Origin: Chiloscyllium plagiosum
Lineage: Eukaryota
Reading direction: 5' to 3'
NCBI RefSeq assembly: GCF_004010195.1
Contig: NC_057746.1
Coordinates: forward strand, 26,742,070-26,806,069
Length of the DNA: 64,000 nucleotides
Shown one piece after another: positions 2,213 to 62,540 of the stretch (position 1 is its first letter; each line of letters starts with the position of its first letter). The position numbers and the translations under genes were made by a program. The notes under the pieces were generated by a model. The model was given only the letters and a program-made list of their open reading frames with translations, made no database searches and was not told where the DNA came from.

Positions 2213-2392
2213 GGAGAAAGTGAGGACTGCAGATGCTGGAGATCACAGCTGAAAATGTGTTGCTGGAAAAGCGCAGCAGGTCAGACAGCGTCCATGGAGC
2301 AGGAGAATCGACGTTTCGGGCATGAGCCCTTCTTCAGGAATCCTGAAGAAGGGCTCATGCCCGAAACGTCGATTCTCCTGCTCCTTGGATGC
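2213..2392. mobile_element. Palindromic PLE-terminus element with a hammerhead core on each strand
   Basis: 14-bp TSD tggttaagtagtta (2199-2212, 2393-2406); inverted arms each read CTGAAGAAGGGCTCATGCCCGAAACGTC. Confidence 0.85.
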
Positions 2393-2768
2393 TGGTTAAG
2401 TAGTTATACCACTAACTTTGCCAGCCGAGGTTTGTTGAACATCACTTCCAGATTGGAAATCCTCCTCCTTGATGCTTTCTATTTAAATTGAATAAATATT
2501 TGCAGAATTTTAAGGAGGTTGTCACTTAGAACCACTTGAGTGTACTTAAAGTGGAAAGTGGCTAAATGTGGCCATACCTGTTTGAGTGACTAAATAAAAT
2601 AAGAATAAATTTAAACTGAATAAGGGAATTTAAGACGCACTCCAGATTCCTACTGCAAATTAGTATGTAAATCCACAAGATGCATCGGAGAAAATTATCA
2701 AAAGCAACGAGGACAAAGGTTCCACAACGTGGCCAAAAAAAAGTAGAACGTGAATTGTTTTACAAATA

Positions 2769-2997
2769 CAGGTAAACTCCCGTTTTTTGAAAGTTTGCTT
2801 CACGCCAGTTTGCTTTTACGAAAGACATAAATTAATACCTGTTTCCCCGAACCAGAAGACATCCAAAGAGGATTTTCACTTTTATGAAAAAAGACAAAAC
2901 TTTTCCCTTATAAATTAATGCTTCTTTGCTTTACACCATTTCAGCTTTTGAAAGGTTTCATAGGAATGCTCTACTTTTGAATAGTTGGGGATATCTG
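2769..2997. mobile_element. Tc1/pogo(Tigger)-type MITE
   Basis: TA|CAG...CTG|TA termini and imperfect ~25-bp terminal inverted repeats. Confidence 0.6.
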
Positions 2998-4128
2998 TAT
3001 GCATAAAAGTACATTAAAGGGAATTATGGAGTCAACTGATAAGCAAGGGGGAAATCTGCTTGTGGATGTAGGAGGCTTGCCTGAGGCGTGAATAATTCTT
3101 CAATGCCTTCAAAAAAGTAGAATTGATTCCTCTACCATAGAGAATGGGGAATGACAATTGCTTAGAATGAAATAGAGAATAGAGAATTACTTAATAGATT
3201 AGTAACATTAAAAGTAGAAATGTATCAGTGATATGATTCATTCATGGATTGATAGGGAAAGTATGGAATAGGTCTTAGGATGTGACACTTGGAATTTTCG
3301 AAATACTTAATGATTTCAAAGTCATGCTACAATCTTTGCAAATCTTTGGTTACGACGTTTCTCGCTTAAATGTCAAAGCCTTGGAGATAATACAGGGAAG
3401 ATTTGTCTTAATTATATCAATATGTTTACAATTGTGACGAGGGACTTCTGTTATGTGGGAGCCTGGGACAGGTCTCTAAGGATCAAAGAAAATAAGTGCC
3501 ATATAGTAGTGGTGTTCAGAGCTATACTTGACTTTGATAGTTCAGGTAAAAACACACCGTTTCTACTGGCAGAAAACTCGTAAGCAGATGACACCAACAT
3601 ATGAGAATTAGCAACAGAACCAGAGCGAAAATGACAGCATTCATTCCCACCAGTTATTAAGATGTACATCACCCTAGTGCATCAGGATAAGAATTCAAAG
3701 GTAAGTTTAAAAATGGAATATATTTACAATTGAAGTGCAAGTTACATGCAGGGCTATGCCAAAGGTGGAATGGAGTGGTTGGGGCTGTGGAACGCTACTA
3801 ATTAGGATGTCCTTTCAAAGAAGAAGAAATGGCACGTTTTGTTGACTCCTGACTCATTTAGATGATGCCCTGGTTTTTAATTTCCGCGCATGGATCGCTG
3901 AACAATTATCCTGCTGTTCTTGTAATGTGATGTTTAAAATTAGATCACGTAGATGATGTGACTCAGCTGGCATCGGCAGTTAAGCAAAACAGAACAGATA
4001 AATTCAGTGTTTCTAATGAAGAATCTGATCATATATTTGTGTGTACGTTAAGCAGATCTTATCTACCACAACAGCGTATGTTTATTTAGGTCAAGTGCTG
4101 ACTATATCAAAGAGAAAATATTGACTCT

Positions 4129-4211
4129 AGAGTGTGGTACTGGAAAGGTACAGCAGGTCAGGCAGCATTCGAGGAGCACGAGAATCGACATTTCTGGCAT
4201 AAGCCCTTCAT
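4129..4211 (-). mobile_element. Degenerate single-arm PLE terminus
   Basis: Similar to the arm of the 2213 and 42219 elements; hammerhead core truncated. Confidence 0.6.
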
Positions 4212-4709
4212 ACAAGATATGAAGAAGACATTTTTTTCTTGACCAGCTATTCTATTCAATTCAGTTATTCTAGCCAATACAATGCAGCTTATTTACATGA
4301 CGATGTAAGAAGGAATGGAAATTCAACTAATTGCACATTTTGCACACATGCCCTCACATAATCAATCACGCTTCATTTAGTCATTCACAAAGCAAAACTA
4401 TATTGACTACAGCTTTAGTGCAATATGTGTGTTGTTTTAATTACATTTAATCCTAAAATGCAATGGCATATGAGAAGTAGCTTTGAATTTCTTGATATCC
4501 TTCATTTTATGCAGTTAAAGTCCGCCATCATATTACTTTATTTGCGAAGAAACACATAGTCCTGCATACAGTTTAAAACCTGACTGCATTTTATGCATTT
4601 TTTACTTAGGAGAACAGAACCTGCAGTGTGCTTGTTCTCACCTGCGTCCTTCAAAGTGACTTTCCATAGCTAAATTCCCCAGCACCAGACATGTCGAGTA
4701 CCATCTTAC

Positions 4710-5999: not shown

Positions 6000-6189
6000 G
6001 AGTTAGATGATGCCAAGTGCGCACTTTTACGTTCAATATTGCACGAGCAGAATTTCTCAGGTATTGACGCATTTTCAGGCAGCGTGTCTCTATCGAAGAG
6101 ATTATAAAGCAGAATTTCATGTTTTAAAATTGTTTGTTGCCGGTATAAGGAATGTGTAATGGAGTTCATGCATAGCTTGCCATCTGACA

Positions 6190-6300
6190 TCTTACTCTTC
6201 CTGCCTGCCATGCCCGTTAATTTCGTTGACGCCTCACTTCCTGTCAGATGTGAGCCTGTCAGTTCAGCAGTAAACTACAAAACCACTTTATGAATTTACT
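6190..6300 (+). promoter_or_regulatory. Candidate proximal promoter of gene A (ETS site, E-box, RUNX-like site)
   Basis: CACTTCCTG 6235-6243, CAGATG 6245-6250 and AACCACT 6281-6287 lie 150-200 nt upstream of the ATG. Short motifs, so weak evidence. Confidence 0.35.
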
Positions 6301-6434
6301 AGCAACCCGCGGTTCAACTTGTACCGTTTAATGCTGTAAGCCTGGCTATTGTATCACTCTAAAGTTTGATCTTATCTCGTGCTGCAATTTGGAGTAACGA
6401 TATTTATTTTCCTGTTTAAACTCAGTTCGTAACA

Positions 6435-6495: not shown

Positions 6496-9400
6496 GTAAG
6501 TGAATCGTCATGCTCTTATTATTGTTAATTGTAGGACAGGAACAATAATTAATTATAGTAAGTTGACGATTACGTGCATTTCTGAAAGCATAGCTTAACA
6601 AGTTGCTGTATTGGCTAAAGCAGACACAGAACTAAATAGCATCTTCAACATTTGATGAGGCATGCATTTAATTACACAAAAACATTCAATTATTCCATTT
6701 GGCATCAATACATTTTAAAACTTCAGCATTGAAAATCACTCAAACAAAAGCACGTCCTTCGATAATATGGTATGAATTTCAAAGACAGACGTCTTGTGCT
6801 AACAATTTACATTAACATCATTCTTTGTATGCGCCGATGTTGTTCAGCTAATTGCATTATGCATCTCCATTAATACAGCTGCGTATTTTTATTTTGATTA
6901 AAACAATTATAAGCATTTTATGTACATCTCACTGATATCTTTCCTATTTGTTTTGCTAAATAAATACTTTGCTGAGTTACCAAGCTTGAAGTACCAAACA
7001 CAATTCAGTAAGCAAGTTAGTAGATTAGTGGTCTCCGAAAATCAAAGGCTACCTTCAATCTAATAACTGCAGGCCATTTAGTTCAGCTACCACAATATTC
7101 CTACGGTGGATTTCTGAGAGTCGTGAATCTTAACACTTGATAATATTTTTATAACTTTTTGAAACCTATTACATTCTCTTTACGCTACTTATGCTAGCAA
7201 CATATCTAACATATTGACTGCCAATGGCACGTTAGTTACTTAGTTTCATATTTTCCTCTTTGTTTCTGATTAGCTAGATCTCATTTCTGGACAATACACA
7301 TTAGGGAGGATGTGACTGCATTAGATAGAGTGCATAAGAAGTTTACGAGAATAGTTCCCAGGATGAGTAACTTGAGCTATATTGATAGAATTGGGAAATT
7401 GGAGCTACTTACTTTGGAGTTGAAAAGACTGACAGATATAGTCGATTAGATTACCTACAGTATGGAAACAGGCCCTTCGGCCCAACACGTTCACACTGAC
7501 CTCGGAAGAATAACCCACCTAAACATTCGATTTACCCCGACTAATGCACCTAATACTATGGGCAATTCATCTTACCTGCACATCTTTTGATTGTGTGAGG
7601 AAACCCACGCAGACTCAGGGAGAATGTGCAAACTCCGCACAGTCACCCGAGGCAGGAATTGAAGACATGCCCCTGTAGCTGTGAGGTAGCAGTGCTAACC
7701 ACTGAGCCACAGGCTTCCTTCATCTGAGTATATCGGGAGAAAATACTCTTCCTAAAAGTGACTAGAAGTAAATACATTTGCAGAAGAAGCAAATTTGTAT
7801 AAAAAATGAACATTCCCCTACAGTGTATAAAAGCAAGTTATTGCAGAAGGTAAAAATTTGAAATAAAAGCAGTGTACTGGAGAAATCAGGTGATCTGGCA
7901 GCAGATTCCTTTTTCAGACACCGAAAAAGAAAAGCCTAGCGTTCTGAAGAAACGTCAGGTCGGCCTGGAAGTGGCAAATCTATTTCTCTCACTATTGATT
8001 GTGCCAGACCTGCTGAGCTTCTCCAGCAATTGCTGTTTTATTTTAATCTCACACAGAGAATGCTTAGGATCGGAAATGTCCGGCCTGAACTCGCTGTGTT
8101 GGATGAGTCAAGCAAGATATTGAGACAGACATTAAATGATTATTTGAATAGAAACAATGATGAGGGTTACGGCAAAAAAGCAGAACGATAAATCATACTG
8201 TTCATTCAAAGAGGCGGTGTATATATGATGGGCCGGATTGCCGTCTTCTGCACCATAATAATTCTGTGCTTTTATGTAATCCTCTGTAACCAACAGACAT
8301 TAAACCAGCCAATTGTTTTATTATTTGGAAACGATTTACCATTATCACTCTTCAAATCTTCTTGTTAAAAATGTCTCATAGTCACCAATATTGGCGCTCA
8401 CATATCATTGCCCTTCAGTGAGGGACAATCTTTGCTGCCATTCCCCATAGCTATTCTGAGTACTGGGTATTCAGTTTGAAACCAAAGATCACGAGCAGCA
8501 CTCCAGATATAGACTCACCAGCGTCAAATACAATCTCAGAATAATTAAACTAGATTTTTCATTTCTTTCATCTGGAATGCAGCAAATGGGGAGATATAAT
8601 TTGCACAAATGATTGTTTCAAAGTATTCCAGAAACTGAAAGGGATAGCCTTACATTTACTAACAATTTAAAAATCCATTTTAGGTTTTAGAAATGGCATA
8701 ATTGTCTGTACATATTTTGAAGAAATTAATTCTGCAATTATAATAACAATGTTGAACACGTATTAATATGGACATCGAGGACTAATTTGAAAATATCAGA
8801 TCATTTGAAGTTGATTTGAATTGTTACAACAATCTGTCAGATGTTGGAAATAACGTGATTGTGTCACTTATGCTGTTTTTCAAATACTGAACCTTTTAAA
8901 AATAAAACGATATACAATAACTAATGCTCAGAATCTTTTCCTGGGGATGTGTATTTTCTCTGAAGTTAGATACTTGTTGCGGGTCATGATCAGCGTAAAA
9001 TCTATCGTTTATTGGTTGAATATTACTGATTCTGACATTTGTTTAATGATTCAGCATGCAGTTAAAACTGTACAGTTTTCATACCCCACCCCTATGGATT
9101 TTAAAACTCATAGATCAAGTAAGAAATTTTGATAAAAACTAAAACGAAGCTTTAAATGTGCACAATCATTCAAATAACTTTACTTGCACACGCTACATGC
9201 AATAGATTTGTAGACAGCTGTCGCTTTCTTTGAGGTGAACAGCCGAAGGAAACACCCATGACAAAATATAAGATTACAGTTTAAGATTACAATCTTTAAA
9301 TCTAGGAAGTAAATGATATTTCTTAATTTAATGAGGCGATGTAACAAAAATAAGAGGCTTGATGTGATTCCACTCTGTGCACTGTCACACGCAAACAAAT

Positions 9401-12400: not shown

Positions 12401-15400
12401 TAGCAGATTTTGCAGTTCAGATCATAACGTTAACCAACAAATTATAACAAGAAGCACATGGATCAGCAGATATATGTGCATATTTAATAAATAGACAATT
12501 TGTTTTCATTTGTATTAAACAAAAATAATACTAACCATAATCATATTTTCCAATTTTCTTGCAGCATACGCTTTGCTTGTCAGGTTAGTCGCTCAATAAC
12601 TTGCTTGTCGATATATTTTGATATAAAGTTTTTCTCTGAAGGTTGCTAAGCATTTTCTTATTCTACAGAGAATGTTCCTCATTCGATTTTGCAAAAGAAC
12701 AGGGTAAGTGCTATCCAGATTTATTTGTTTCATTCAAAACACTGTCAACAATTGCATGAGCATAATGATTTGTATGTGTGTATGCGTTTTGTGTGTGTGT
12801 GTATGTGTCATTGCTTCAAATCTATGATTTCTAGCATATTTGGGTTGAGAAATATAAGCTTAAACAGAGCATGCAAACATGCACTGTTTGTAAAGGAAAG
12901 GTTTTGTAAAGGCATCACCGTGTCTGACAAATATAAACATGTCTTGGACAATCAATTGCTATTAATAAGCGAAGTATTAAGATCCAACATGATTCCTTTT
13001 TGCTCAGAGCTTTAAGGAACATCTATGCTGTCTTTTTCTTTGGAAAACAGGCAACTATCCATGTAGGGAGGTGAGAGAGGAGGTGTGGGCGCAGGTTTTT
13101 CAATTCCTGCGGTGGCAGGGGAAGGTGCCAGGATGGGAGGGTGGGTTGTTGGGGGACGTGGACCTGACCAGATAGTCACAGAGGGAACGGTTTTTGCGGA
13201 AGGTGGAAAGGGGTGGTGAGAGAAATATATCCTGGTGGTGGGGTCCGTTTGGAGCTTTCCATATCCATCAAAGTTTTACTTGCATATCCACTAATATCAT
13301 TTATTGTATCCGTTGCTCCCAATGCGGTATACTCTGAATTGAGGAGACTGGACTCCTCCTAGCAGAGCGCTTTAGGGAACATCTCGGGACACCCGCACCA
13401 ATCAACCACACCGCCCTGTGGCCCAACATTTCAACTCTCCCTCCCACTCAGCCGAGGACATGGAGGTCCTGGGCCTCCTTCACCGCCGGTCCCTCAACAC
13501 CCGACGCCTAGGGGAAGAACGCCTCATCTTCTGCCTCGGAACACTTCAACCCCAGGGCATCAATGTGGACTTCACTAGTTTCGTCATTTCCCCTTCCCCC
13601 ACATCACCCCAGTTCCAAACTTCCAGCTTAGCATTGTCCCCATGACTTGTCCTACCTGCCTATCTTCCTTTCCACCTATCCACTCCACCCTCCTCTCAGA
13701 CCTATCACCTTCATCCCTACCTCCATTCACCTATTGTACTCTAGGCTACTTTCTCCCCATCCCCACCTTCCTCTCACTTATCTCTCCACCCTTCAGGTAC
13801 TCTGCCTCTATTGCTGATGAAGGGCTTTTGTCCGAAACGTCGATTTTCCTGCTCCTCGGATGCTGCCTGAACTGTTATGCTTTTCCAGCATTCTAATCCA
13901 GAATCTGGTTTCCAGCATCTGCAATCATTGTTTTTACCTAACTATCCATGTAGGTTTGAATTTAATCGCATATCAATTAAACTTTGGGACTTCAAACTGG
14001 GTGAAATTTCATGGGATGTGCCTCAGAACAGGTTCAGCAGAAATTGTAACTGTCACTTAACAAACTCAGAGATATTTCGGTAACATTATTTCATGACATG
14101 CTAAGGCCTCAGAGGACAACTTTTGCAAGATTGGCCAAACGTAGTCCATCTGATTGCCACCAGCATTCAAGGTATTGTAAGATGACAGTTCCATCAGGCC
14201 CATTTATAGACTTCCTCAATGTCTTTGTAAGAATTTGGAATTATTCAAATCAACAGCAGTTTCGGAGATGCTGAAAAGCAGGCTGTGCTTTAAAGAAGAG
14301 GTAGAGCGTAAGGTGCAATGAAAATATTTGTAATATTTGTTTTAACGTGATATGAATGCTGAATATTAAAGCACAAAAACTTCACGAAATCGCCATTTCT
14401 TTGAGGACGCTCTTTTTAATCAAAATGAGTGCTCACTATTTTTAACAGCAAATTCACGCTCTTAGAATACCCCAGGCATCTGAAGAACAACTATTCTCAA
14501 GTCTCAATTTCTCTAAACATCTTGAAAATACAGATTCCTTATTGTGCCCGCATCGACTCAACTTTGCCATTCACTTAAATAAGATCTAACAACATCAAAA
14601 TTAGGACATGAATACACAAATTTAAAACAGGAGTGAGTCACTTGGCATCTTAAAGGTGCAAGGGCACTCAATTACTCCACATTCTGCCTTTTACATCGTT
14701 GTTTATCAAGAATCTGTCCAGCTGACTTACAAAAAAGTTTCTGTTTCCACTTCCATTGAAGAAGAGATTTACAATGATTCCAGACACGTAGTGAGAAAAG
14801 AAATCTTCCCGCATCTGTTTTAAATGGGCGACACTTTAAATAGTGATCCTAGTTCTAGTCTTCCCAGTGAGTGGAAGGATCCATTCCATATCTGTCCCCT
14901 CAATACCTCACAGTACTTTTCATTTTGATTCAAATCGGCTTTTACCCGACAATGGATAAAAGTCTGTAAATGGCTGAACTTATTCTCATAAGAAAATGAA
15001 CCGATTTCAGGAGAACTAAATCATGCGACTTAAGCCTGTTACATAATTCAAGTGGTAATTGTCTATTCATTAATGCCTGGAGGGCAGTTAACTGTCAACT
15101 TTATTGCCCTGTTTCTCGACCTTGTGCAGACTAGCCCATAGTGAAGATGCTTTATTTCCTTTCCTGACAGACATTGACGAAGAAAAAGGTATTTTTAAAA
15201 AATATGATGATGCCTATATGAGACTAGCTTTTCATTCCAGCTGTTTTATTGACCACATAATTTCCAATTTCTTTACATCACCATTGCTTACTTTTCTCTA
15301 AAACGTACTCTTCTATCTTTCACAGAACATGCACATTAGTATTTGGAATAGTTGCTGTTCGTCTTTCAGTACACAATTTCACTTAAGTTAATCCTTTTAA

Positions 15401-18400
15401 TGAACACCATGTGTGATTCATGGCCTTATTAGCCCGGACAATAAGCTTGCCTAATGGGGCTCCAGCGTCTTCTGCATTCTAGTGCATTTGTACAAAACCC
15501 TATTCCTTCCTAACTGCTGTCTCGCTAACTTTGATGATTTGTTGGTTCAGTTAAATGGATATGTCTGACTGGAGTAATACATTGGGATGGAAGCTATGTG
15601 CTGTGACCTCGTGTAATTTCAGGGTGATGGGGAGGATTTATTCAACAACAAGAAGAAAACCCTCATAATCTGGAGAGTGTTAGGTGCTAAAATTGCCCAC
15701 AGTGTCCAGGGATGTGTAGGGTAGGCGCATTCGTCTGGGGTAAATGCAGGGGAATGGGTCTGGATGGGTTACGCTTTGGAGGATTGGTGTGAATTTGTGG
15801 AATGAAGGGCTGTTTCCACATTGTAGGGATTCTATGATCCTATGATTCTAAGAAATAGGCAGCCCACCCACTATATGTGAAAAAGGATCAATTGAACTTA
15901 TTAGAAGTTCAGTTGACAACACTCTGACTTGGCCAACACCATGATGCAGCTGGCGTTCACTCATGGGTGTACTTCAGCAGCAAAATCTCTTTCAAAGCTT
16001 TTATAGTGATGAGCAGGGAAAAGTAGTGCGCTATCTTTGAAGCATATGTTTATTCATCAGGAGTACCTCAGTGTATACATCCACACACTGCACACGATGA
16101 AAATACCCCCCTCACTCCTATCTGCTTTACTTTAATACCCTACCCCCACTCTCTAAAAATGGCAAACCTTCATAATCAAACCCCCAAAGGTATATCACTC
16201 CAGAATCCATTACTGCCTTCCTCGTGAACCTATCTATAGTTTTGGTAGCGCCCACTACCTAGCTCTGGCGTTATAGAAATTATTAGAACTGAACGTTTAC
16301 TGGAATTGTGGGTCTCTGCTGTTGTGGTTCTGTTCGCCGAGCTGGAAGTTTTTGTTGCAGACGTTTCGTCCCCTGTCTAGGTGACATCCTCAGTGCTTGG
16401 GAGCCTCCTGTGAAGCGCTTCTGTGGTGTTTCCTCCGGCATTTATAGTGGCCTGTCCCTGCCGCTTCCGGTTGTCAGTTTCAGTTGTCCGCTGTAGTGGC
16501 CGGTATATTGGGTCCAGGTCTATGTGTTTGTTGATGGAGTTTGTGGATGAGTGCCAAGCTTCTAGGAATTCCCTGGCTGTTCTTTGTTTCGCTTGCCCTA
16601 TAATGGTAGTGTTGTCCCAGTCAAATTCATGTTGCTTGTCGTCTGCGTGTGTGGCTACTAGGGATAGCTGGTCGTGTCGTTTCGTGGCTAGTTGATGTTC
16701 GTGGATGCGGATCGTTAGCTGTCTTCCTGTTTGTCCTATATAGTGTTTTGTGCAGTCCTTGCATGGGATTTTGTACACTACGTTAGTTTTGCTCATGCTG
16801 GGTATCGGGTCCTTCGTTTTGGTGAGTTGTTGTCTGAGAGTCACTGTTGGTTTGTGTGCTGTTATAAGTCCTAGTGGTCGCAGTAGTCTGGCTGTCATTT
16901 CAGAGATGTTGTGGGTCTCTGCCATGCTTTTTAATTCGGGGACGTTTGTGTGTGGGTTACTGAACTGGCCTCCGTAAGTTTAGGGCAATTGTCTTTACAT
17001 TGTTGATTCATACTATTCTGCATATTTTAAACGCCATTAACCTACATGAAGAAAGGGAATTAGCTTAGCTCAATTGGCTGGATTGTTGGCTTGTAGCATA
17101 AGATGATTCCAACAGTGTGGGTTCCATCCTTACCACTGGTTTGAGGTTGCCATGAAGAACTGTCCTTCTCAACTGTCTTACTTCACTGGTGGTCCTCAGG
17201 TTGAATCACCACCACTGATCTCTCTAAATCGAGAGTAGACCCTACGGTCTGGTAAGATTATGGCAACACACAGCAGTCAGCCATAATAATAAATGTCTCT
17301 TTTTTTCAATAGATCATCAGTGACTCTTTTCATTTGTCACTATGACAGTCAACAGTTAACTAACTGCTCTGTCACTAATCATTTTTTTGACAATCTTCTC
17401 TGATTGTAACCATGGAGACTTGACCTAATAGGTAAAGTATATCTTGGATGCGCAGAAGAGTTATTTTGTTAAATGAAATTGGAATTTCTAAATGTCTAGG
17501 TTGTTCTTGGCAGTTGTAGGAAATAGTGACCATAGCATGGTAGAATTTTTCATTTAGAATGAAAATTTCTACAGTGTGGAAACAGGCCCTTCAGCCCAAC
17601 AAGTCCACATGACCCTCCGAAGAGTAACCCACCCCGACTCTATTCTCTTACCCTGTATTTATTCCTGGCTATTGCACCTAGTCTAGGCATCCTGGAACAC
17701 TACAGGCAATTTAGCAGGACCAATTCACCTAAGCTGCACATCCTTGGAAGGTGGGAGGAAACCGGAGCACCCAGAGAATGCCCACGCAGACGCAAACTCC
17801 ACACAGACAGTCACCCCAGGCAGGAATTGAATCTAGGCCCCTAGTGCTGTGCGGCAACAGTGCCAACCATTGAGCCAGAGTGCCATCACAGTGGCTTTAG
17901 TTTCAACTTCAAATGGGCTCAAAATCTAAATAATTAGATTCTGAATTCTGAAGGTATGAAAGGGAAGTTGGCTGTGATGGATGAGAAAAGTACATTCAAT
18001 GTTCTGACAGTAGATTGGCAGTGGCAAATATTTAAAGAATTAGTGTTGCTTTCAAAAGCCATACATTCATGTAAAGCAAAAATAATCAACACGAAAATAT
18101 GACAATCAATGGGAGATAGAAATAATTTTAAATAAAAATAAGAGGCTTATAAACTTTACAAAAATATGCTGTAGGCCTAACGATTGGAAGCATTTCGAAT
18201 TTAGCTAAGGTGAACTAAGGAATTGATAAAGAAAGAAGCAATAGAATATTAACTTAAATTATCAAAAAAAGCAAAGCAAGGCTTCTAAATGTATATAACG
18301 TAGAAACAATTAATAAAGGCGAATGTGAGTCAATTACAGTCAGAGTTAGGAGAATGTAGGAAGCAGCGAGCTAATATGCATACCGGTGATGTGGAATAAA

Positions 18401-21400
18401 GTGCAGGAGAAACGTAGCAGGTTTAACAACACCTGTGGAAGAAAAGTAGAGTGAATGGCTCAAGCCCAACGACGTCTCCTTTCGACATTTGAATCCACGA
18501 AGAATTATTGGCATGTTTAAGACATACAATGCTCCCCTGACAGCTGTTCTTGCCGCATCCTGAGTCCCACATTCAGTGCCTTGTGCCACCATATGTACAT
18601 GGACATCTCGAAATTTCTGCATCACGTCCGCCTCATGCTTCCTCAATGCTGTCATTGTTTCCATTCTACCCAAGTCTTCATAGCATTCGATGCATAAATA
18701 AAGGGAAAAGGAAAAAAAAACATTTTTGTGTTAAAGAGCACAAGCTTCAACAACGCATGGATTTCGATGATTCTATGAATCCTTCCTTCCACCTTCTGAT
18801 TCCATCCCTTCTTCTAAGCTTCTAAGTCTCTTGTTGTGTGTTTATTATACATGAGTTTTGAAGCCGAGTTATTCGGTGTAAAGCATTAGCGCTATTTCTC
18901 TCTCCACAGACGCTGCTAAACCTGGTGGCTACCTCCAGCATCTTGTGTTCTAATTACAACAGAAATTATAATAGGAAATAGAGAAATTGCATGGAAGTTT
19001 TAAAAAATAATTTTGTGTCATCTTCATCGAGGAAGATACAGAAATATTGCCCTGAAATATTTAAGCATGAGCATAGAAGTGAACTAATATCTATTAGTAT
19101 GAGTGGAAAATCAGAGTAGTACTACTGATTGTGAATGAAATCCGACAAATATCTGGGACCAATGAATTTAACCTAGAATGTTCAAGTGACAGTTAAAATC
19201 CTAATAGATACAATGTTGATTATCTTCCAAAATTATATCAATTCCACAACGTTGCTGCAGTTTTGAAACTTTTAATTGGAATCCTATTGTTTAAGAAAGA
19301 CTAACTGAGAAAGTCGGGATCTCCAGATCTGTAAGCATGACGTCCGTAGGAAGGAAAATATTAAAATCGATTGTGAGTGATGTAACTGCTGGATTTGTCG
19401 GAAATAATTGTGAGATTGAACAGAATAAATGTGAATTTATGAAGGACGATTCAAGTTTGACAGATAACAATCTTTGTTTTGTTTGGATGTTTTAGCAAAA
19501 TTGATAATGACAGCCAGGGTACGTGGTGTGTTTGAACTTTCCAAATCTTCAATAAAATCCCAGAAGTAGGTTAGAAAACAAATTTATACTGCATTTGATG
19601 AGGCAATATACTAAAATGTATTCAGGATTAACAAATGTAAATAAAAGAGCAACGTCAATGGTGCATTATTAGACTGATAGGTTGTGACAAGTGAGTAACA
19701 GAAATGTCAATGCTTTGGCCCCAGCTGTACAAAGTTATTTAAGTATTTGGATATGGGGACTAAGTGCAATATCTCAAAGTTTGCAGATGATACAAAATAT
19801 AGTGATATTGCGAATTTTGAGGAGAGTGCAAAAATGTTTCAACTGAGGTTATATCGATAGACTGAATCATTGGGTAATAGTATGGCAGATGGGAAATAAT
19901 GGGGTAAGAGAGGTTATCGTGTTTGGTGGGAGGAACAGAGAAGCACATGATTTTTAAAATGGTTAGACATTCTAAAAGGTTGATGACCAAAGGGACATTA
20001 CATGCCTTTGTGATAAGTAGCTGAATGTTGGCTTGCAGCTGCAGCAAGCAATTCGGATAGAAAATGAGATGTAAGACTTCATTACAAGTGGATTTGAGAA
20101 CAGCAGAAAGGAACGTTTGCTTCAACTGCATAGAACACTGGCAACACCATACGTGGATTGTTGTATTTAATCTGGTCCTTTTGCCTCAGGGAAGATATAC
20201 TTTCTATGAGTGGAATTCAAAGAAGTTTCATCAGGCTGGTGAACATGCGAAACTTCTTCAAGGGATTGATTGGGTGGATGCAGAAAACATTCTCTCCTGC
20301 TGTAATGTCTAGAAGCAAGGATCATACTTTCAGAGTAAAAGGAAAGTGATTTAGAACTGAGTAGAGGAGGAATATTCAGAGATTGGTGAATCTTTAGAAT
20401 TTCTTGCCTCAGACAGATGTGGAAGCTTAGTCGATAAGTAAGTTCAAGATAATAAAAATTGAAAGAACTGTGGATGCTGTAAATCAGAAACAAACTGAAA
20501 TTATTGGGAAAGCTCAGCAAATCTGGCAGCATCTGTGAAGAGAAATCAGAGTTAATGTTGTCAGGTCAGGTACCCTTCCACAGAACATCCCCAGTTGAGG
20601 AAGGGTCATTTGACCCAAAACATTAACTCTGATTTCTCTTCACAGATGCTGCCAGATCTGCTGAGCAAGTTCAAGATTGATTGATAGTTTTCTAGGAACT
20701 CATGGCATCAACAGTTTCGTGAATGAATGGGGATATAGTGTTGAGGGAAACGTTGTAAAATCAGGGAGGATGCTGGAGGGCTGAATGGCCTACTCCTTCT
20801 CCTATGTTCCTAATCTTTTTATTACAGTCAATCAAGTCCTGCCACACCCAATCTATTTAGGCAATCTGCATAAATTATATAGGACATAGGACAGTAAAGT
20901 ACAAAACTGGTCTTTCAACCCATCATGTGCGTTCTGATCATGATGCCATTGTAAACTACTCTCATCTGGCTGCACATTCTCTGATCCATCTATCTCCTGC
21001 CTGTTCACGTGAGTGTCTAAATGCCAGTTAACCATTGTTGTGGTTTCAATATCTACGGCACCATCTAACAGTATGCTAATTGCACACACCACGCCCTACG
21101 AAAAAGAAACTTGCCTTGTATTTCTTATTCATACGTTAAACTTGTCAACTTAAACATATGGCCTTTAGCATTTGACAGGACCACGTTGGAAAAAGACTCA
21201 GACTGCCCGCCTTCTCATACTTTCATATTCTTCTATCAGGTCTCCTCTCAGCCTCCAATACATAGCAGAAACAGTTCAATTTTGTCCAATCTCTCCTTAT
21301 AGCTAATAAACCCCAATCCAGGTAGCATCCTGGTAAATCTCTTTAACATTACCTCCAAAGCCTTTCCGTCCTTCATATAATATGGTGACCAGAACTGCAC

Positions 21401-29772: not shown

Positions 29773-29960
29773 GAGGAGAAAGTGAGGACTGCAGATGCTG
29801 GATATCAGAGTCGAGAGTGCGGTGTTGGAAAAGCACAGCAGGGCAGGCAGATTCCGAGGAACAGGAGAATCGACGTTTCGGGCATAACCCCTGATGAAAC
29901 GTCGATTCTCCTGCTCCTCGGATGCTGCTTTCGCTGCTGTGCTTTTCCCACACCACACTC
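29773..29960. mobile_element. Palindromic PLE-terminus element with centrally deleted hammerhead arms
   Basis: Same family as 2213 and 42219; arms meet at ggcataacccctgatgaaacgtc. Confidence 0.8.
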
Positions 29961-37265: not shown

Positions 37266-38100
37266 TAGCGGGTTTTGAGAAGGTTTGTAGCTCAGGTTGC
37301 GGTTTTGGATGTAGGTTTGCTCGCTGAGCAGAATGGTTCATTTCCAGACGTTTCATTATCCTGCTAGGTAACATCTTCAGTGGGCATCAGGCGAAGCAAT
37401 GCTGAAAATTCCTGCTTTCTATGTGTATGTTTGGGTTGCTTTGGGTTGGTGATGTCATTTCCTGTGGTAATGTTATTTCCTGTGGTGAAATCACTTCTTG
37501 CTCCTTTTCTCGGGGGTGGTAGATGGGTGTAACTCGATGTGTTTGTTGATAGAGTTCCAATTGGAATGCCATGCTTCTAGGAATTCTTGTGCGTGTGTTT
37601 GTTTGGCTTGTCCTAGGATGGATGTGTTGTCCCAGTCGAAGTGATGTCCTTCCTTATCTGTATGTAAGAATAGTAGCGTGAGAGGGTCATGTCTTTTTGT
37701 GGCTAGTTGGTGTTCATGTAACCTGATGGCTAGTTTTCTGCCTATTTGTCCAATGCAGTGTTTGTTACAGTTCTTGCACGGTATTTTGTAAATGGCATTA
37801 GTTTTGCTCGTTGTCTGTATAGGGTCTTTCAAGTTGATTAGCTGTTGTTTTAGTGTGTTGGTGGGTTTGTGGGCTACCATGATGCCAAGGAGTCTGAGTA
37901 GTCTGGCAGTCATTTACGAAATGTCTTTGATGTAAGGGAGAGTGACTTAGGTTTCTGGACGTGTTTTGTCTGCTTGTTTGTGTTTGTTGCTGAGAAATTG
38001 GCGGACTGTGTTCATTGGGTACCCATTCTTTTTGAATACACGGTATATGTGATTTCCCTCTGCTCTGCGTACTACCTCTGTGCTGCAGTGACCTCTGTGT
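37266..38100 (-). mobile_element. Poseidon-type PLE 3' fragment (GIY-YIG) plus hammerhead core
   Basis: FKKNGYP..; NAIYKIPCKNCNKHCIGQIGR..LEAWH; CTGAAGATGTTA..TAATGAAACGTC at ~37346-37380 (-). Confidence 0.88.
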
Positions 38101-42218: not shown

Positions 42219-42440
42219 AGGAGAAAGTGAGGACTGCAGATGCTGGAGATCAGAGCTGAAAAATGTATTGCTGGAAAAGCTCAGCAGGTCAGGCAGCATC
42301 CAAGGAGCAGGAGAATCGACGTTTCGGGCATAAGCCCTTCTTCAGGATTCCTGAAGAATGGCTTATGCCCGAAACGTCGATTCTCCTGCTCCTTGGAGAC
42401 TGCCTGACCTGCTGCGCTTTTCCAGCAACACATTTTTCAG
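42219..42440. mobile_element. Palindromic PLE-terminus element nested in Gypsy gag
   Basis: 15-bp TSD ctatattcaaatatt (42204-42218, 42441-42455), ~95-bp inverted arms with hammerhead cores. Confidence 0.88.
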
Positions 42441-43465: not shown

Positions 43466-43945
43466 GTCAGTTCCTGGAATGGCGGGACTACCTTACGCTG
43501 AAAGACTGGAGCGACTGGGCTTGTATACCCTTGAGTTTAGAAGACTGAGAGGGGATCTGATTGAGACGTATAAGATTATTAAAGGATTGGACACTCTGGA
43601 GGCAGGAAACATGTTTCCGCTGATGGGTGAGTGCCAAACCAGAGGACACAGCTTAAAAATACATGGTAAACCATTTAGGACAGAGATGAGGAGAAACTTC
43701 TTCACCCAGAGAGTGGTGGCTGTGTGGAATGCTCTTCCCAAAAGGGCAGTGGAGGCCCAGTCTCTGGATTCATTTAAGAAAGAGTTGGATAGAGCTCTCA
43801 AGGATAATGGAATCAAGGGTTATGGAGATAAGGCAGGAACAGGATACTGATTAAGGATGATCAGCCATGATCATATTGAATGGTGGTGCAGGCTCGAAGG
43901 GCAGAATGGCCTACTCCTGCACCTATTGTCTATTGTCTATTGTCC
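43466..43945 (+). mobile_element. Young CR1 3' end nested in Gypsy pol
   Basis: RLGLYTLEFRRLRGDLIETYKI..FFTQRVVAVWNALP; (CTATTGT)n tail. Confidence 0.92.
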
Positions 43946-46900: not shown

Positions 46901-48189
46901 CATACGTAACCTGTTCAGTAACAACTTTGGATGGGATCATAACAAGAAACTCATAAATCGTTGTCATTCAGTCACTTTATAATATGGTTACGGTAATTTC
47001 AAATGACAGTGTATATTGTAAATAATTTGTCGAAGTTTGTGTCATGTACCATGTCTTTTACACCAGGAACAGACCATTTGGCTGAACGGCTCCATGTTGG
47101 TAGATTTCTTCCAGTTCCAAAGTCTTTGATTTTAAAAGTTTAATTCTGCTTTTTACTCTTCACAAATGCTACAATACCTGCTGGGCTTCTCTAGCATTTT
47201 CGGTTTTCATTTGAGATGACCAGACTTAACAGTATTTTGCTTTTGTGTAACCATATCAGTTGTGTATCCTCCACAGCAGCTTCCTCCCTATCAGCGTTTT
47301 TGTGTGCTATCCAGCTTCCTCTTGAATGCACTTATGCTATTTCACAACTTCTTCATGCGTTCACAGGTTCATTTGTGAATAGTAGATCTGCATAAAACAT
47401 TTCTTATTATTATTGATTGAACTCATCAGTGACTATTATATGTGTCCTCTATCCAGCTAAGAGTGACTAAAAGTAGAAAACATGTTTAATATCTAACTTT
47501 TACTTCTTTACTATTCTCAACCAGGTAATGTTTTCAACCCAGCCTTATCAGGTAGCACTTCTTCAGACGTTTTGTGGAAATGTTGAATGCTCTCCCCTTG
47601 CATTTGTTACCCACCTGAATGTTTCAAATTGCATATAATTGTGCTTGTTTTTGAAAAAAGAAATACATTATTACAGTACCACAATAACAAATAAATTCAG
47701 ACTGGTAACAAGGAAAATAAACTCATAATTTGCTATATTTTATCCACTTACCCATATGTCTCAGAAAACTTTACAATGTGTAAAGATCTATGAAAGAAAG
47801 TGGGCACCCTGAAACATGGATGTCTCAGACATCTGATAACAATTCCATATATAAGTCATAAAACAAATTAAAACGTAGAAAACAATAATGTAAAGAAAGT
47901 TGCCTAGAAAGAAAACATCATCTGTGCCATTTGGCAATGCCATTTGCCATTTAAAAGTGACAGGGATCTCCAGAGATCAAGGTAGAACAGTAGTAGAAGG
48001 AGGGGTCAATCAAAATGCAGCTGAATGATGGATGGCACAGAGCCATTGCTGAGGAGCTACAGAAATGTGTGAGAATAGATTAAGGAAGACAAGTATGACA
48101 AACAACGGCAGCCGATCTTCTGGAGCTGGTAGAATACTGGCAATGTCCCTGGATCAGCCATCAAGAATCTCCTGGCTAAAGTTTTTTGG

Positions 48190-48505
48190 ATGATGTGTTC
48201 AAATTCCACCATGGCAGGTAGTCAGCTTTGATTTCTAAAAGCAAATCTGGTTCACTTATGTCCTTTGGGGAAGGTAATCTGCCTGGTCTGGTCTGCATAT
48301 GACTCCAGGTTCTGGATCAATGGTGCTGGAAGAGCACAGCAGTTCAGGCAGCATCCGAGGAACTTCAGCAAAATCAACTTCGGGCAAAATATGACTCCAG
48401 GTGCATAGCAATGAGGGAGACTTTTAACTGGCTTCTAAACAAACATAGATGGGCAAGGCATTCTGACCTAGTCAGCGATACCAACACTCAATGAACAAAT
48501 AAATA
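48190..48505 (+). mobile_element. SacSINE1-like shark SINE remnant with nested PLE fragment
   Basis: gttcaaattccaccatggcag..ctggttcact.atgtcctt..ggaagg.aatctgcc; related minus copies near 33420-33690 and 51080-51300. Family name from recall. Confidence 0.55.
48311..48388 (-). mobile_element. 78-bp PLE-terminus insertion
   Basis: 14-bp TSD atatgactccaggt (48297-48310, 48389-48402); matches the 59159 terminus family. Confidence 0.8.
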
Positions 48506-52600: not shown

Positions 52601-52700
52601 TACTCCACAACCACCTGATAAAGGAACAGCACTCCGAAAGCTAGTGCTTCCAAATAAACCTGTTGGACTGTAACCTAGTGTTTTGTGATTTTTTTCACTG
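52601..52700 (+). mobile_element. Short PLE-type terminus (third family) with hammerhead-like core
   Basis: cacCTGATAAAGGAacagcacTCCGAAAGCTA|gtg followed by AATAAA. Confidence 0.55.
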
Positions 52701-57197: not shown

Positions 57198-59257
57198 GAA
57201 TCATATCGTCATGGAAATGTACGGCACATAAACAAACCCTTTGGTCCAACTCGTCCATGCTGACCAGATATCCCAATCCAATCTAGTCGCACTTGCCAGC
57301 ACCTGGCCCATATCCTTCCAAACCCTTTCTGTTCATATACTGATCCAGATGCTTTTTAAATGTTACAATTGTACTAGCCTCCACCACTTCCTCTGGCAGC
57401 TCATTCCATGTAAATACCACCCTCTGCGTGAAAATGTTGCCCCTTAGGTCTCTTTTATGTCTTTCCCCTCTCACCCTAAACCTTTGCCCTCTAGTTCTGG
57501 ACTCCCCCACCCCAGGGAAGAGATTTATCCTATCCATGCCCCTCATGATTTTATAAACCTCTATAACAGCCCTAGCCTATTCAACCTCTCCCTATAGCTA
57601 AAATCTTCCAACCCTGGCAACATCCTTGTAAATCTTTTCTGAACCCTTTCAGGTTTTGGAACATCCTTCTGATAGGAAGGAGACCAGAATTGCGTGCAAT
57701 ATTTCTAAAGTGGCCTAACCCAATGTCCTGTACAGCCGCAACATGACCTCCCAACTCCTGTACTCAATACTCTGACCAATAAAGTAAAGTGTACCAAACG
57801 TCTTCTTCACTATCCTATCTATCTGTGACTCTACTTTCAAGGAGCTATGAACCTGCGCTCCATGGTCTCTTTGTTCAGCAACACTCCCTAGGAACTTACC
57901 ATTAAATGTATAAGTCCTGCTAAGCTTTGCTTTCCCAAAATTCAGCACCTCATGTTATTTAAATTAAACTCAATCTGCCAATCCTCAACCCATTGCCCCA
58001 TCTGATCAACATCCCGTTCTAATCTTAAGTAACCTTCTTACCTGTCCACTATACCTCCAGGTTTGGTGCCATCTGCAAACTTACTAAGTATACATCTTCT
58101 GCTCCCATCCAAATCATTTATATATATGACAAAAAGTAGTGGACCCAGCACCGATCCTTGTGGCACTCCACTGGTCACAGGCCTCCAGTCTCAAAACCAG
58201 CTCTCCACCAACCCTCTCTGTCTTCTATCTTTGAACCAGTTCTTTAACCAAATGGCTAGTTCTCCTCGTATTCCATCTAAACTTGCTAACCAGTCTCCCA
58301 TGGTGAACCTTGTCAAACGCCTTACTGAAGTCCATATACATGACCTCCACCGCTCTGCCCTCATCAATCCACTTCGTGAATTCTTCAAAAAACTCAATCA
58401 AGATGATGTGACCTGATTTCCCATGCACAAAGCTATGTTGACTATCCCTAATTGGTCCTCGTCTTTACAAATACATGTACATCCTGTCACTCAGGACTTC
58501 TTCCAACAATTTGCCCACCACCAACGTCAGGCTCACTGGTCTTTAGTTCCCTGCGTTATCCTTACCACTCTTCTGAAACAGTGGCACCACATTAGCCAAC
58601 CTTCAGGCTTCCAGCACCTCACCTGTGACTACCAATGCTACAAATAACTCAGCCAGGGCCCCAGCAGTTACTTCCCTTACTTCCCACAGAGTTCTAGAGC
58701 ACACCTGATCAGGTCCTGGGGATTTATTCACTTTAATGTATTTCAAGACATCCAGCACTTCCTCCTCTGTAATATGGGCATTTTTCAAGATGTCTCCATC
58801 TGTTTCTCTACATTCTATATCTTCCATGACCTTTACCACAGTAAACACTGATGCAAAATGCTCGTTTAGTATCTCCCCCATCTCTTGTGAATCCACACAA
58901 AGACTCTCTTGCTGATCTTTGAGGGGCCCGATTCTCTCCCTCGTTAACCTTTTGTCTTTAATGTATTTGTAAAAACACTTTGGATCCTCCTTAACTCTAT
59001 TTGACAAAGCCATCTCATGCCGCCTTTTTGCCCTCCAGATTTCCCTCTTCAGTATACATGCACTGCCCTTATGCTCTTCTAAGCATTCGTTCGATCTATC
59101 TTTTCTATATTTGATTTATGCTTCCTTCTTTTTCTTAACCGAACTCTCAATTTCTTTAAGGTAAAATCAATGACTGCAGATGCTGGAAACCAGATTCTGG
59201 ATCAGTGGTGCTGGAAGAGCACAGTAATTCAGGCAGCATCCGACGAGCAGCAAAATC

Positions 59258-59285
59258 GACGTTTCGGGCAAAAGCCCTTCATCAG
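59258..59285 (-). ncRNA. Minimal hammerhead ribozyme core (intact)
   Basis: CUGAUGA-A-GGGC-UUUU-GCCC-GAAA-CGUC. Confidence 0.7.
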
Positions 59286-59414
59286 GAATAAAGCTTTTTT
59301 TTTCTGTGTGATCTGGGAGATAATGGTTTGGTGATGGGGGGTGGGGTCATGGTCGAGGGGGCAATAGGAAGAGGTGTCCTCGAATTGGCATTTGGCTTCA
59401 GCGGTGTAAAGGTC

Positions 59415-59504
59415 NNNNNNNNNNNNNNNNNNNNNNNNNNNNNNNNNNNNNNNNNNNNNNNNNNNNNNNNNNNNNNNNNNNNNNNNNNNNNNNNNNNNNN
59501 NNNN
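59415..59504. other. Assembly gap (90 N)
   Basis: Run of N. Confidence 0.99.
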
Positions 59505-59712
59505 CCCAAGCAGTTCCAGAGGCTGGGGGAATCTACTGGAATGTTTGAGGAGTGCTGGTTATGGAGGTGGGTAGATAAACGTTTGTTGTACTTACAGTTT
59601 TTGATATTTGAGATGGAGTTGAAATACTGTTTGTTGAGAGTATGGATTCTCCTGAGGATGTAGTACAGAGTGGGTCCTTTGCAATTCTGAGAGAGTGTGG
59701 CCATTATATTCA

Positions 59713-60127
59713 TTGGAATTTAGAAGAATGAGGGGGGAATCTTCTAGAAACATATAAAATTATGAAGGGAACAGATAAATTAGAAGTAAAGAGGATGTTT
59801 CCATTGGCAGGTGAAACTAGGAGAAGAGGGCATAGCCTCAAAATTACAGGGAGCGGATTTAGGACTGAATTGAGAAGGAACTTCTTCACCCAGAGGGTTG
59901 TGAATCTATGGAATTCCCTGCCCAGTGAAGTAGTTGAGGCTTCCTCAGCAAATGTTTTTAAAGTTAAAATCGATACGTTTTTGAACAGTAAATGAATTAA
60001 TGGTTATACTGAGAGGGTAGGTAAGTGGAGCTGAGGCCATCAAGAGATCAGCCATGATCTTATTGAATGATGGAGCAGGCACAAAAGGGCCAGATGGCCG
60101 ACTCCTGCTCCTGGTTCTTATGTTCAC
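59713..60127 (+). mobile_element. CR1 3' end nested inside the PLE composite
   Basis: RGHSLKI..FFTQRVVNLWNSLP; ctcctgctcctggttcttatgttc tail. Confidence 0.88.
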
Positions 60128-62540
60128 ATGTTCTCAGACAGAGGTCCTCTGCCTGACAACAACAATGGGATTGGTTGTCAGGTAATTGAACAACTTGAAG
60201 CAGATTTCTTTTAAAACCTTCAAGTAGTGTGATGACTCTCAGAATAGCAGCTCATGATTTCGAACCGTTGCTGGTGTTTTTGAATCTGTAGTCTGTACTG
60301 TTTGTCCTGTTCGGGTCCGAACTCTGCTGGTTTAAAGGTGGTCCGGAGTCCATGTGGGATGAGTTGGTTACGGAGGCATGCACTGAGGAAGCAAATGTGG
60401 CTGTGGTACCGAGTTTGTTTCAGGACATAGTTGAAGAGCTTCAGGGCAGAGGAAATGACCTGGGAGTTGCAGTGGGAGAGGGACTCCCTGAGATTCTTGT
60501 AGAGAGAGGAAGAAAACTTCGTCAAGGCAGGCATCCTTGCAAGAGGAATCGCAGTAGGTTTAAAATCAACGAGATAAAAACAATGACTGCAGATGCTGGA
60601 AACCAGATTCTGGATCAGTGGTGCTGGAAGAGCACAGCAGTTCAGGCAGCATCCGAGAAGCAGTAAAATCAACATTTCGGGCAAAAGCCCTTCATCAGGA
60701 ATATCTGATGAAGGACTTTTGCCCGAAACGTCGATTTTGCTGCTCGTCGGATGCTGCCTGAATTACTGTGCTCTTCCAGCACCACTGATCCAGATTCTCA
60801 ATTTCTTTAGTCATTCAGCATTTCCTACACCTACCAGACGTTCCTTTCACCCCAACCGGAATATACTGTCTCTGGACTCTCGTTTTCTCATGTCTGAAGG
60901 CTTTCCATTTTCCAACCATCCCTTTATGTGTGAACATTTGCCCAAATCAGCTTTTGAATGTTTTTGCCTAACCTCCTTCTCCAAGTTTCACCTGCCAGTA
61001 GGAACATCCTCTCTACGTCTATCATATCTACTCCCTTCATAATTTTATATGTTTCTATAAGATTTTTCTAAAAACCAATGAATATAATCCCGGTTGCAGG
61101 GAATTGCTTGCAATTGTTTATAGTATATCAGATAACCTTCTTGTTGTCGTGGGAAATAAAGAAGGGAAATGTATATATTTATGTAAGGATGCATAAATGT
61201 TCGGTCACAATTACTAAGGAGGTTAAGGTAGGTGAGGAACTTAACAAGCATTTAACCACGAGGCAAGTGATACTGACCAAAATGATGTAGCTCCATGTTG
61301 ATTTGTGATAGAGATCATTCTAACATCTTAAAAAAGGTCGACTTTGACATGGTAGATGCATTGATTTCAATTTCAAGTTCGTTAGAGTTTGGAAAATTGA
61401 TGAAAATAGGTCGAATCGTGTTAGGAAAAAGATCAAAAGTTCTCAAGAATAGACAGGGTGGGAAATGTGGTATTCACTTCAGCATTGGTTTGATTGATTG
61501 TCAGAGCAGACTCGAAAGGGCTTTTAACCCCTTTTAATTCTTATGTTGTTGTCTTCATATTCTTGCCTCAGCACAACTCGGGAATCAAATGCAAAACAAA
61601 AACAAGCAAGACATTGTATTTTGTACAATAGCCTCATGTTAATGTGTTGCACAAGAATGTAAATTTGCAGCTTTGGCCACACCACAGAAGCAAATTCAAA
61701 CGTAATCAGAAGATATGTGCAACTAAGATGACACTGATTTTACATTTTTTTCTCAACCACTTAGCTTTTTCTTGTTCCAAATTAAACACTAAGATATTTC
61801 CTCTTGAAACCACAGAGTTTGAGTCTTTACACTATTACTTACCACTAAAACTGATTCAGTTAAAGAACCATATATGTCATCATATTCTTTACAAGTACAA
61901 TATTACAATATGTTTCATGTAAATATCAGCTATGTTTTGCTGAGAATCGACTTAGCTTACTGATTGCTCATATTTTGCATTGTCTAACAAAGTTCCCTCC
62001 ACACCTCAACATTGAAGATGTATGTCGACGGTTTCCTCTACAAAACTTAACATGATAGGCGAGAGAGCAGAATTGCCAAAATTGGTCAATGAGAATCCTG
62101 CTAATGCAATGGATTAGATCATAAAACATAGTGGGAAATATGGAAAATAATCACTTTAAAGCATGTATTTACTTTCCAATGTGCTGTTGAATCGTGCTAT
62201 GGGGTAACCATAGAAGGATTTTGTTTCTGTTTTGTACGTGACATCTGAATCTCTGATGTTCACAGTGAAAGTAAAACGTGGAAAAACATTTCATAGCCCA
62301 GCTGCAATTGTTGAAATGAGCAAAGAACGAAAAGGGACAATAAAAATGCAAAATACATCCATGAAACCAGAATGTTTCCCAGTAAAGCAAACTCCTTCGT
62401 TATGCTGCACAGTAGAACAACAATTCGAAATCAGGAGATCAAACACAATTCTCAGCAAATCATATTAGATCAATTTCAATTGAATACTCATGAAGGATAA
62501 AAAGCATTCGTTAACATTTACAAATGCTTCACTTACGCGT

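Follow-up and report, generated by a model that had tools for sequence, protein, structure and literature searches.

Hammerhead-bearing fold-backs in a carpet-shark locus as probable end stumps of Penelope-like elements

What are the short palindromic inserts that carry hammerhead ribozyme motifs in the genome of the carpet shark Chiloscyllium plagiosum, and how does their mirrored shape arise? We analysed a window of 64,000 nt (NC_057746.1, positions 26,742,070-26,806,069 of the forward strand, assembly GCF_004010195.1), in which self-comparison and direct reading located five head-to-head fold-backs at 2213-2392, 20451-20666, 29773-29961, 42219-42440 and 60572-60795. An initial annotation of the window had named the first four, which were confirmed, and the fifth is added here. 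The fold-backs are paired pseudo-long terminal repeats (pLTRs), the hammerhead-bearing ends of Penelope-like elements (PLEs), spread over three families (A, B and C). It is very likely that they are stumps of PLE ends and not a new class of element. That each is one dead-on-arrival insertion of an endonuclease-bearing PLE, reduced to the pLTR and given its mirror arm by priming from both ends of the target, is a longer chain of steps which, taken as a whole, we favour by a modest degree.

An adjacent inverted, 5'-truncated copy stands head to head in all five fold-backs, and in every one the left arm is antisense and the right arm sense with respect to the element. Counting positions within the arms from the C of CUGA, the long arms of families A and B end at +125 to +127 (left arms of 2213 and 42219, and the elements at 13068 and 59159), the long arm of 29773 stops on the same sequence, and that of family C ends at +132. 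Five of the seven tail-less ends lie at about +86 to +91 (measured for the right arms of 42219 and 60705 and for 4129, placed by end sequence for the right arm of 29773 and for 48311), and a tail of 30-40 bp is confined to one end of the unit. The two remaining tail-less ends are shorter, at +50 and +71. Most arms begin 4-5 nt before CUGA, as does the 3' pLTR at 59159 following an A-rich join; 48311, with its start inside stem II, and 13068, which reaches 746 nt upstream, depart from this. In four copies, 5, 5, 6 and 13 letters lie between the two cores; the fifth (29773) has lost its centre by deletion. Arms within one young copy are 95-96% alike, and both arms of 2213 have a loop II variant in common, that is, copy-specific letters. 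Across the centre, identity between the sister copies 2213 and 42219 is 94%. They have the same five-letter centre except for its middle base: with the long arm as reference, this is A in one copy and T in its sister.

Exact duplications of 11-15 bp were found at six of the ten boundary pairs searched (25 nt each side). They abut the element ends and include four of the five fold-back units, while a duplication of at least 10 bp occurred in 2/300 random boundary pairs, a null that used a narrower 12 nt each side. The AT content was clearly above the window's 61% in three to four of the six. The initial annotation had credited its four inserts with target-site duplications of this length, which holds for 2213, 20451 and 42219 and fails for 29773, where the best exact repeat was 7 bp and off the boundaries; no exact 11-15 bp duplication was found at 4129, at 52601 or at the 16.3-17.0 kb element (boundaries of the latter only guessed) either.

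The most informative unit is the insertion at 59159-60795, in which a single 14-bp duplication bounds open reading frame (ORF) sequence together with the same fold-back. It runs from the 5' pLTR (60703-60259) into an ORF that is 89% identical to P0001. Pen2a_Av has the same layout (PMC3846280). Together with the published architecture of full-length PLEs, this ORF-bearing case supports an earlier suggestion that the inserts are ultra-truncated PLE insertions with an inverted 5' end. The inverted arm at 60705-60795 differs from the distal 3' pLTR at 1/90 positions and from the adjacent 5' pLTR at 8/90, and it has three changes in common with the distal pLTR which are missing from 13814, 48311 and the left arm at 60572. 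This distal match runs counter to a simple fold-back, because a fold-back predicts a copy of the adjacent pLTR. An A-rich run at 59291-59304 links a mid-ORF position straight to the start of the 3' pLTR; this single join, beside an assembly gap, looks as if the reverse transcriptase (RT), on reaching the 5' end of one RNA, had switched to the poly(A) end of another that was terminated prematurely.

How could such a unit be made in one insertion? A PLE protein has been shown in vitro to cut the target on both strands and to extend each of them, and its two neighbouring internal start sites mark the limits of the tail (PMC11167929). In the shark, the unit is bounded by the 11-15 bp target duplication, the long arm of families A and B stops at a fixed end, and the other arm mostly stops 35-40 nt earlier, a difference equal to the published tail. 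We infer, from few copies, that the mirror arm is built at insertion: after a staggered cut both target 3' ends would prime complementary DNA (cDNA) on PLE RNA, one from each start site, and both cDNAs would usually stop 4-5 nt before CUGA, where the arms are seen to begin and where the template RNA probably begins. The two cDNA ends would then join through an overlap of 0-3 nt, and the palindrome would be new at each insertion. The flip of the central base between A and T fits two cDNA ends that each stop 4 nt before CUGA, because annealing over 3 nt leaves a central mismatch; it speaks against a palindrome copied whole, because whole copying should fix the base relative to the tail. PLE transcripts are reported to begin inside the pLTR, from an internal promoter, and our best guess is that the 5' ends at the hammerhead edge mark the start of transcription. 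Two other sources of these ends were considered and do not fit. Hammerhead cleavage after GUC would remove the core, whereas the copies begin some 32 nt upstream of the cleavage site. A splice acceptor, as has been reported at the 5' end in D. virilis, would require an AG, which does not precede the start in the 13814 copy, and the loose ends described below have no common upstream exon among the rows listed.

Public reads bear on where copies begin. Contigs from three DNA runs (X1, X5 and X16) were placed at 80% likeness on the 1.2 kb at 12900-14100, and the details given here are among the 24/3,344 loose-end rows and 15/224 joints listed. The stretch received 72,891 contigs in X1, 73,258 in X5 and 78,638 in X16, with a depth peak over the hammerhead-bearing pLTR; more than 70,000 contigs per run agree with the very high genome-wide abundance that had been anticipated, contig depth not being a copy number. 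Among the rows listed, the largest loose-end classes stand before 13810/13814 (751/857 contigs in X1, 626/702 in X5 and 778/860 in X16), and a further large class stands behind 13890, its loose letters continuing the family A short end. Agreement among the loose ends before 13810/13814 was 0.32-0.34, therefore their flanks are mostly unrelated, and the pattern is consistent with numerous dispersed copies whose starts lie at the hammerhead 5' edge. In one poly(A) single-cell RNA run, a library to which small or circular RNA is invisible, 2,598 reads were placed from 12,955,460 records; the two strands were about equal over the pLTR, 93% of placed reads continue into unlike sequence and no pile-up of starts or ends was seen, which is consistent with passenger transcription. 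Relative to the DNA runs, A>G and T>C places increased to about the same degree as other kinds of change, and these counts are no test of editing because paralogues are pooled. A bolder extension of our proposal, which we regard as tentative and on balance doubtful, is that the dominant PLE template in carpet sharks is a short pLTR-only RNA that starts exactly at the hammerhead 5' edge and comes from solo copies, used in trans in the manner of a short interspersed nuclear element, and that two RNAs of this kind are copied by a dimeric PLE protein working from both target ends, the cDNAs being joined by a few-base overlap.

The hammerhead core pattern gave eight matches in the window against 0.01 expected, and 0/100 shuffles reached eight. 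Core CUGANGA, extra base, G-C-closed stem II, GAAA, palindromic 15.2-16.2 and UH are intact in both arms of 2213, in the left arm of 42219 and at 59159, 13814 and 16393, and at 37380 the closing pair of stem II is G-U. Among the fold-back arms, core, 4-bp stem II and CG-UC are intact in 3/10 (both arms of 2213 and the long arm of 42219). A stem II pair is broken in the right arms of 42219 (the first pair) and 60705, the CG palindrome is lost in the left arm at 60572, both arms of 20451 have broken cores and the central deletion of 29773 runs through both of its cores. Hammerheads on both strands, which the initial annotation attributed to the family, are thus found at the DNA level in one of the five fold-backs (2213) and not in the other four, and none of the single arms it named (4129, 48311 and 52601) has an intact core. 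By eye and without a pair count, the sequence of stem II differs among families A/B, C, D and E with pairing kept, CG-UC is changed to GC-UA in family E, and no two-sided stem change was seen within A/B. No Rfam hammerhead model matched at E values up to 1; of ten matches below the gathering score, nine were to microRNA hairpin models, which any fold-back draws, and these were dismissed. Exact pattern scans of metagenome and viral contigs gave 0 loci each. A loose CUGA...GAAA match at 47532-47566 (minus strand) has no convincing stem II and is probably decayed or due to chance.

Even intact motifs are predicted to be silent within a fold-back. In read-through RNA the antisense arm would come first and pair with the hammerhead, leaving the ribozyme unfolded: in folds of growing prefixes, the pairing probability of stem II rounds to 0 in five of five read-through transcripts, while isolated arms gave 0.82-1.0 in four of five, the fifth having a broken stem. 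Since the antisense arm is made first on either strand, the ribozyme is masked and no same-sense dimer partner is supplied, and the minimal PLE hammerhead needs such a partner to act as a dimer (PMC4209133; PMC6765202). Hammerheads on both strands are catalytically meaningless for one RNA, because there is a single sense hammerhead in each transcript and its own complement precedes it. The fold-back is therefore predicted to supply neither an active monomer nor a partner for dimer cleavage, and the motif is most plausibly cargo of the pLTR. Whole units fold at a predicted -113 to -177 kcal/mol; the long hairpins expected earlier are thus supported by folding, and double-stranded RNA (dsRNA) in vivo stays a prediction.

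Several observations weigh against two-ended priming. The centre flip could be a point mutation, the number of sister copies being two, and the junction arguments come from these two copies and one compound insertion. In the latter, the 90-N gap and the foreign segment mean that mis-assembly, later nesting into an existing palindrome or gene conversion could explain the kinship of the arms. The tail-less ends at +50 and +71 (2/7) miss the second start site, and in vitro the PLE starts alike on both strands, which gives no reason for a one-sided tail (PMC11167929). No RT core of families A-C lies within the window. The loose-end peaks are inflated by changes of the reference itself at 13809-13813 and by other families that diverge upstream, and strand-change joints at the centre amount to 1-3 contigs per run among the joints listed, no measure of palindrome frequency; contigs probably break at palindromes.

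The same PLE origin could also give the second arm by another route: the first cDNA might fold back or prime itself, or an antisense template might serve for priming, and the product would then be trimmed. Such a route has been put forward for palindromic PLE junctions in head-to-head orientation (PMC3846280), it predicts the copy-specific letters common to the arms of one copy, as in loop II of 2213, and two short arms do end irregularly. We nevertheless hold it for a doubtful, if serious, possibility: the inverted arm should copy its neighbour and the one at 60705 copies the distal pLTR, a 1-nt centre leaves a hairpin primer no loop unless more native sequence was lost, and there is no reason for 5/7 short ends to fall at one site. 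It is unlikely that the shape is secondary, through deletion between inverted pLTRs of longer insertions or through two insertions landing head to head. Tip deletions do occur, as the centre of 29773 demonstrates, and PLEs tend in the literature to land in or beside existing copies. However, a single duplication bounds each unit, the arms of young copies are as alike as given above, deletions would not be expected to halt time and again 4-5 nt ahead of CUGA, and this is also where large numbers of single, uninverted copies begin.

Another possibility is a non-autonomous, ribozyme-only family in which a palindromic master is transcribed and re-inserted whole by PLE proteins. The recurring position of the centre in 4/5 copies and the likeness of 2213 and 42219 across it are what such a family would give; according to the literature PLE proteins can act in trans on pLTR-bounded cargo, and non-LTR retrozymes have been proposed as non-autonomous PLE derivatives. 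Still, one shape is made by three separate families, the short arms end variously at +50, +71, about +86, +90 and +91, the central base flips relative to the tail between sister copies, and the same junction is present in the insertion with ORF sequence. The hammerhead is masked and in most cases has decayed, a perfect hairpin of 50-94 bp would presumably be a poor template, and RNA reads are about equal on both strands and mostly run into unlike sequence. A self-propagating palindrome family, offered as an alternative in the initial annotation, is not supported, given the differing families, arm lengths and centre base, and we consider it quite improbable.

Returning to the PLE stumps, their wider setting in the window (Table 1) comprises family A (2213, 4129, 29773 and 42219), family B (13068, 48311 and 59159-60795) and family C (20451 and three faint arms). 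The family A/B profile detected 16 stretches in the window, its 6 seeds included, and 0 in five control sequences. With the family C and further profile models, there are about 15 PLE-derived segments covering roughly 8% of the window by intervals set by hand; the initial annotation had put the derivatives at about a dozen. The arms had been said to match the 3' end of the element at 13068-13939. This is so for families A (76-84%, and 88% over 52 nt for the short arm of 2213) and B (79-89%), but blastn found no match of 20451 or 52601 to that element, and 52601 is unlike all others; a PLE origin of the latter may be inferred from its motif only.

Nor is 13068-13939 the coding PLE it had been taken for, being a 5'-truncated, broken endonuclease-end fragment with no intact ORF. 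Its pLTR is continuous with the element body from the endonuclease-like frame, as the pLTR at 60703-60259 runs on into the ORF, so that in family B pLTR and body are joined directly, whereas families A and C are tied to PLEs by pLTR similarity only. The family D frame has a Pfam GIY-YIG match at E 0.037, below the cut-off, and its Atlas neighbours, at 0.95-0.96, carry GIY-YIG on 15-20% of their members. The family B endonuclease piece has an Atlas lead at 0.90, 42% identity over 31 amino acids to the family D frame (E 1e-6) and no Pfam match, and its assignment as an endonuclease is suggestive only. By their motifs, family B may be Neptune-like and family D may be Poseidon-like. A search of representative proteins with the ORF piece gave 34 matches, and 0/9 of those scanned had an RT Pfam domain. 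The best relatives of the piece at 60534-60259 are in Chiloscyllium punctatum (90%), Hemiscyllium (70%), Stegostoma (68%) and Rhincodon (58-59%), the carpet-shark relatives being unnamed or misnamed gene models. P0008, a public V-set protein of 180 amino acids, is 93% identical over 30 amino acids of its last part to the ORF piece and by its sequence appears to be a gene model that took in a PLE fragment. Both junctions of the 13068 insertion are present in organism B, so the insertion predates the split from it.

Table 1. Fold-back arms, other PLE-derived segments and target-site duplications in the 64,000-nt window
Feature	Position	Strand	Remarks
Family A long arm, pLTR and tail	2213..2341	-	Intact minimal hammerhead, core 2337-2310
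Family A short inverted arm	2340..2392	+	Intact minimal hammerhead, core 2343-2370; ends +50 from CUGA
Decayed family A arm without tail	4129..4218	-	Broken core; 5' end with a mirrored stub of 6 nt; duplication not found
Degenerate family C-like pLTR arm	7943..8049	+	E 1e-6
5'-truncated family B PLE	13068..13939	+	Broken GIY-YIG-like endonuclease end, 3' untranslated region, pLTR, hammerhead 13814-13841, tail
Family D PLE fragment	16321..16979	-	GIY-YIG-like frame; hammerhead 16393-16360 with longer stem-loop II
Degenerate family C-like pLTR arm	18855..18948	+	E 1.5e-5
Family C fold-back	20451..20666	long arm -, short arm +	Long arm ends +132, short arm +71; 13-nt centre; both cores broken
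Family A fold-back	29773..29961	.	Central deletion runs through both hammerhead cores; no duplication, or a degenerate one
Second family D PLE fragment	37271..38200	-	Hammerhead 37380-37351; upstream limit approximate
Family A fold-back	42219..42440	long arm -, short arm +	Long-arm hammerhead 42345-42318 intact; short arm ends +90
Degenerate family C-like pLTR arm	47126..47234	+	E 2e-7
Family B single arm without tail	48311..48388	-	5'-truncated inside stem II, no core; clean duplication-bounded insertion
Family E end piece, unrelated	52601..52694	+	Hammerhead-like motif at 52615, G8 changed; no duplication found
Family B 3' pLTR and tail	59159..59290	-	Intact core 59285-59258; left end of insertion
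Insertion interior	59291..60571	-	ORF N-terminus pieces 60534-60259 and 59710-59519, colinear with P0001; neither RT core nor endonuclease visible
90-N assembly gap	59415-59504		Inside 59159-60795 insertion
LINE-like repeat piece in foreign interrupting segment	about 59716-60125		Inside 59159-60795 insertion
Family B 5' pLTR	60572..60703	-	Runs on into ORF start
Inverted pLTR without tail	60705..60795	+	Family B
Duplication, unit 2213	2199-2212 and 2393-2406		14 bp; last 2 bp ambiguous with arm
Duplication, 13068 element	13053-13067 and 13940-13954		15 bp
Duplication, 20451 unit	20440-20450 and 20667-20677		11 bp
Duplication, 42219 unit	42204-42218 and 42441-42455		15 bp
Duplication, 48311 arm	48297-48310 and 48389-48402		14 bp
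Duplication, 59159-60795 insertion	59145-59158 and 60796-60809		14 bp
LINE, long interspersed nuclear element.

Much of this architecture is already in print: the inverted pLTR, one-sided tail, duplication, junction palindromes, minimal hammerheads and opposite-strand pairs have all been described. Units of endonuclease-positive PLEs (PMC3846280, PMC8557442, PMC2377424) have the same head-to-head inverted 5'-truncated copy, duplication and junction palindrome, with the same inverted arm shorter by about 35-40 nt and the tail at one end. In contrast, the shark units are mostly about 180-220 bp without an ORF, their duplications are 11-15 bp instead of 8-10, several occur per 64 kb and their 5' ends cluster at the hammerhead 5' edge. 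The metazoan PLE hammerheads (PMC4209133) are likewise type I, with a helix III of only the palindromic 15.2-16.2 pair, a short helix I, an extra base between 9 and 10.1 and G10.1-C11.1, and they too occur as many families per genome, mostly solo. Opposite-strand hammerhead pairs 100-700 bp apart were reported there, compared to only 5-13 nt apart in the shark, where stem II of families A and B has 4 bp.

Anolis Poseidon studied in vitro (PMC11167929) likewise has two fixed 3' ends that delimit the tail, extension of both target strands and AT-rich targets. In this one reconstituted PLE hammerhead cleavage was dispensable for insertion, no reads ended at the cut site, and inverted products were not reconstituted; its ORF starts in stem II, whereas that of shark family B starts about 35 nt past the tail. 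Non-LTR retrozymes (bioRxiv 10.64898/2026.07.22.740005) are, similarly to the shark units, short non-coding pLTR-related sequences with type I hammerheads, and are found in a cartilaginous fish. They are head-to-tail tandems that allow dimer cleavage, whereas the shark fold-backs are dispersed head-to-head pairs: no head-to-tail array of the unit was present among the nine tandem-repeat rows of the window, and each fold-back gives one sense hammerhead per strand, in contrast to the at least two same-sense hammerheads of a retrozyme. A literature search outside subscription journals, Repbase/Dfam and supplements gave no account of these shark families, of the 5'-end clustering or of twin priming in PLEs, and how PLEs form inverted repeats has been called undefined (PMC8557442).

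The window holds other features beside the PLE segments. At 10164-10574 (plus strand), an open frame encodes an immunoglobulin V-set domain (Pfam E 6e-12) and is probably a single exon of a host immune-receptor gene, with the 13068 insertion 2.5 kb further downstream. This exon is not that of P0008, the two being 20% identical. Decayed LTR-retroelement-like pol fragments are found at 44589-45621 (plus strand; Pfam RVT_1 E 4e-5, below the cut-off). Copies of a LINE-like repeat, which by its motifs may be CR1, are 63-87% similar and lie at 4711-5999, 21214-21805, 43374-43925, 54388-55757, 57201-58712 and 59716-60125, two large ones facing each other 1.4 kb apart. Two 600-bp direct copies of an unidentified repeat (40935-41523 and 45907-46504) are 73% similar.

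At the level of element classes the importance of the fold-backs is small, and their remaining value is mechanistic, as the stumps can separate two-ended priming from fold-back. If short pLTR-only templates are indeed copied from both target ends, the stumps, in their many thousands, would record in vivo how inverted repeats of PLEs arise and so settle the question, with the fold-backs as a large, self-silencing source of dsRNA. In primates, inverted Alu pairs are a main source of endogenous dsRNA. If the shark fold-backs are transcribed within host RNAs, their dense hairpins of 50-94 bp could likewise be a main endogenous source of dsRNA in sharks.

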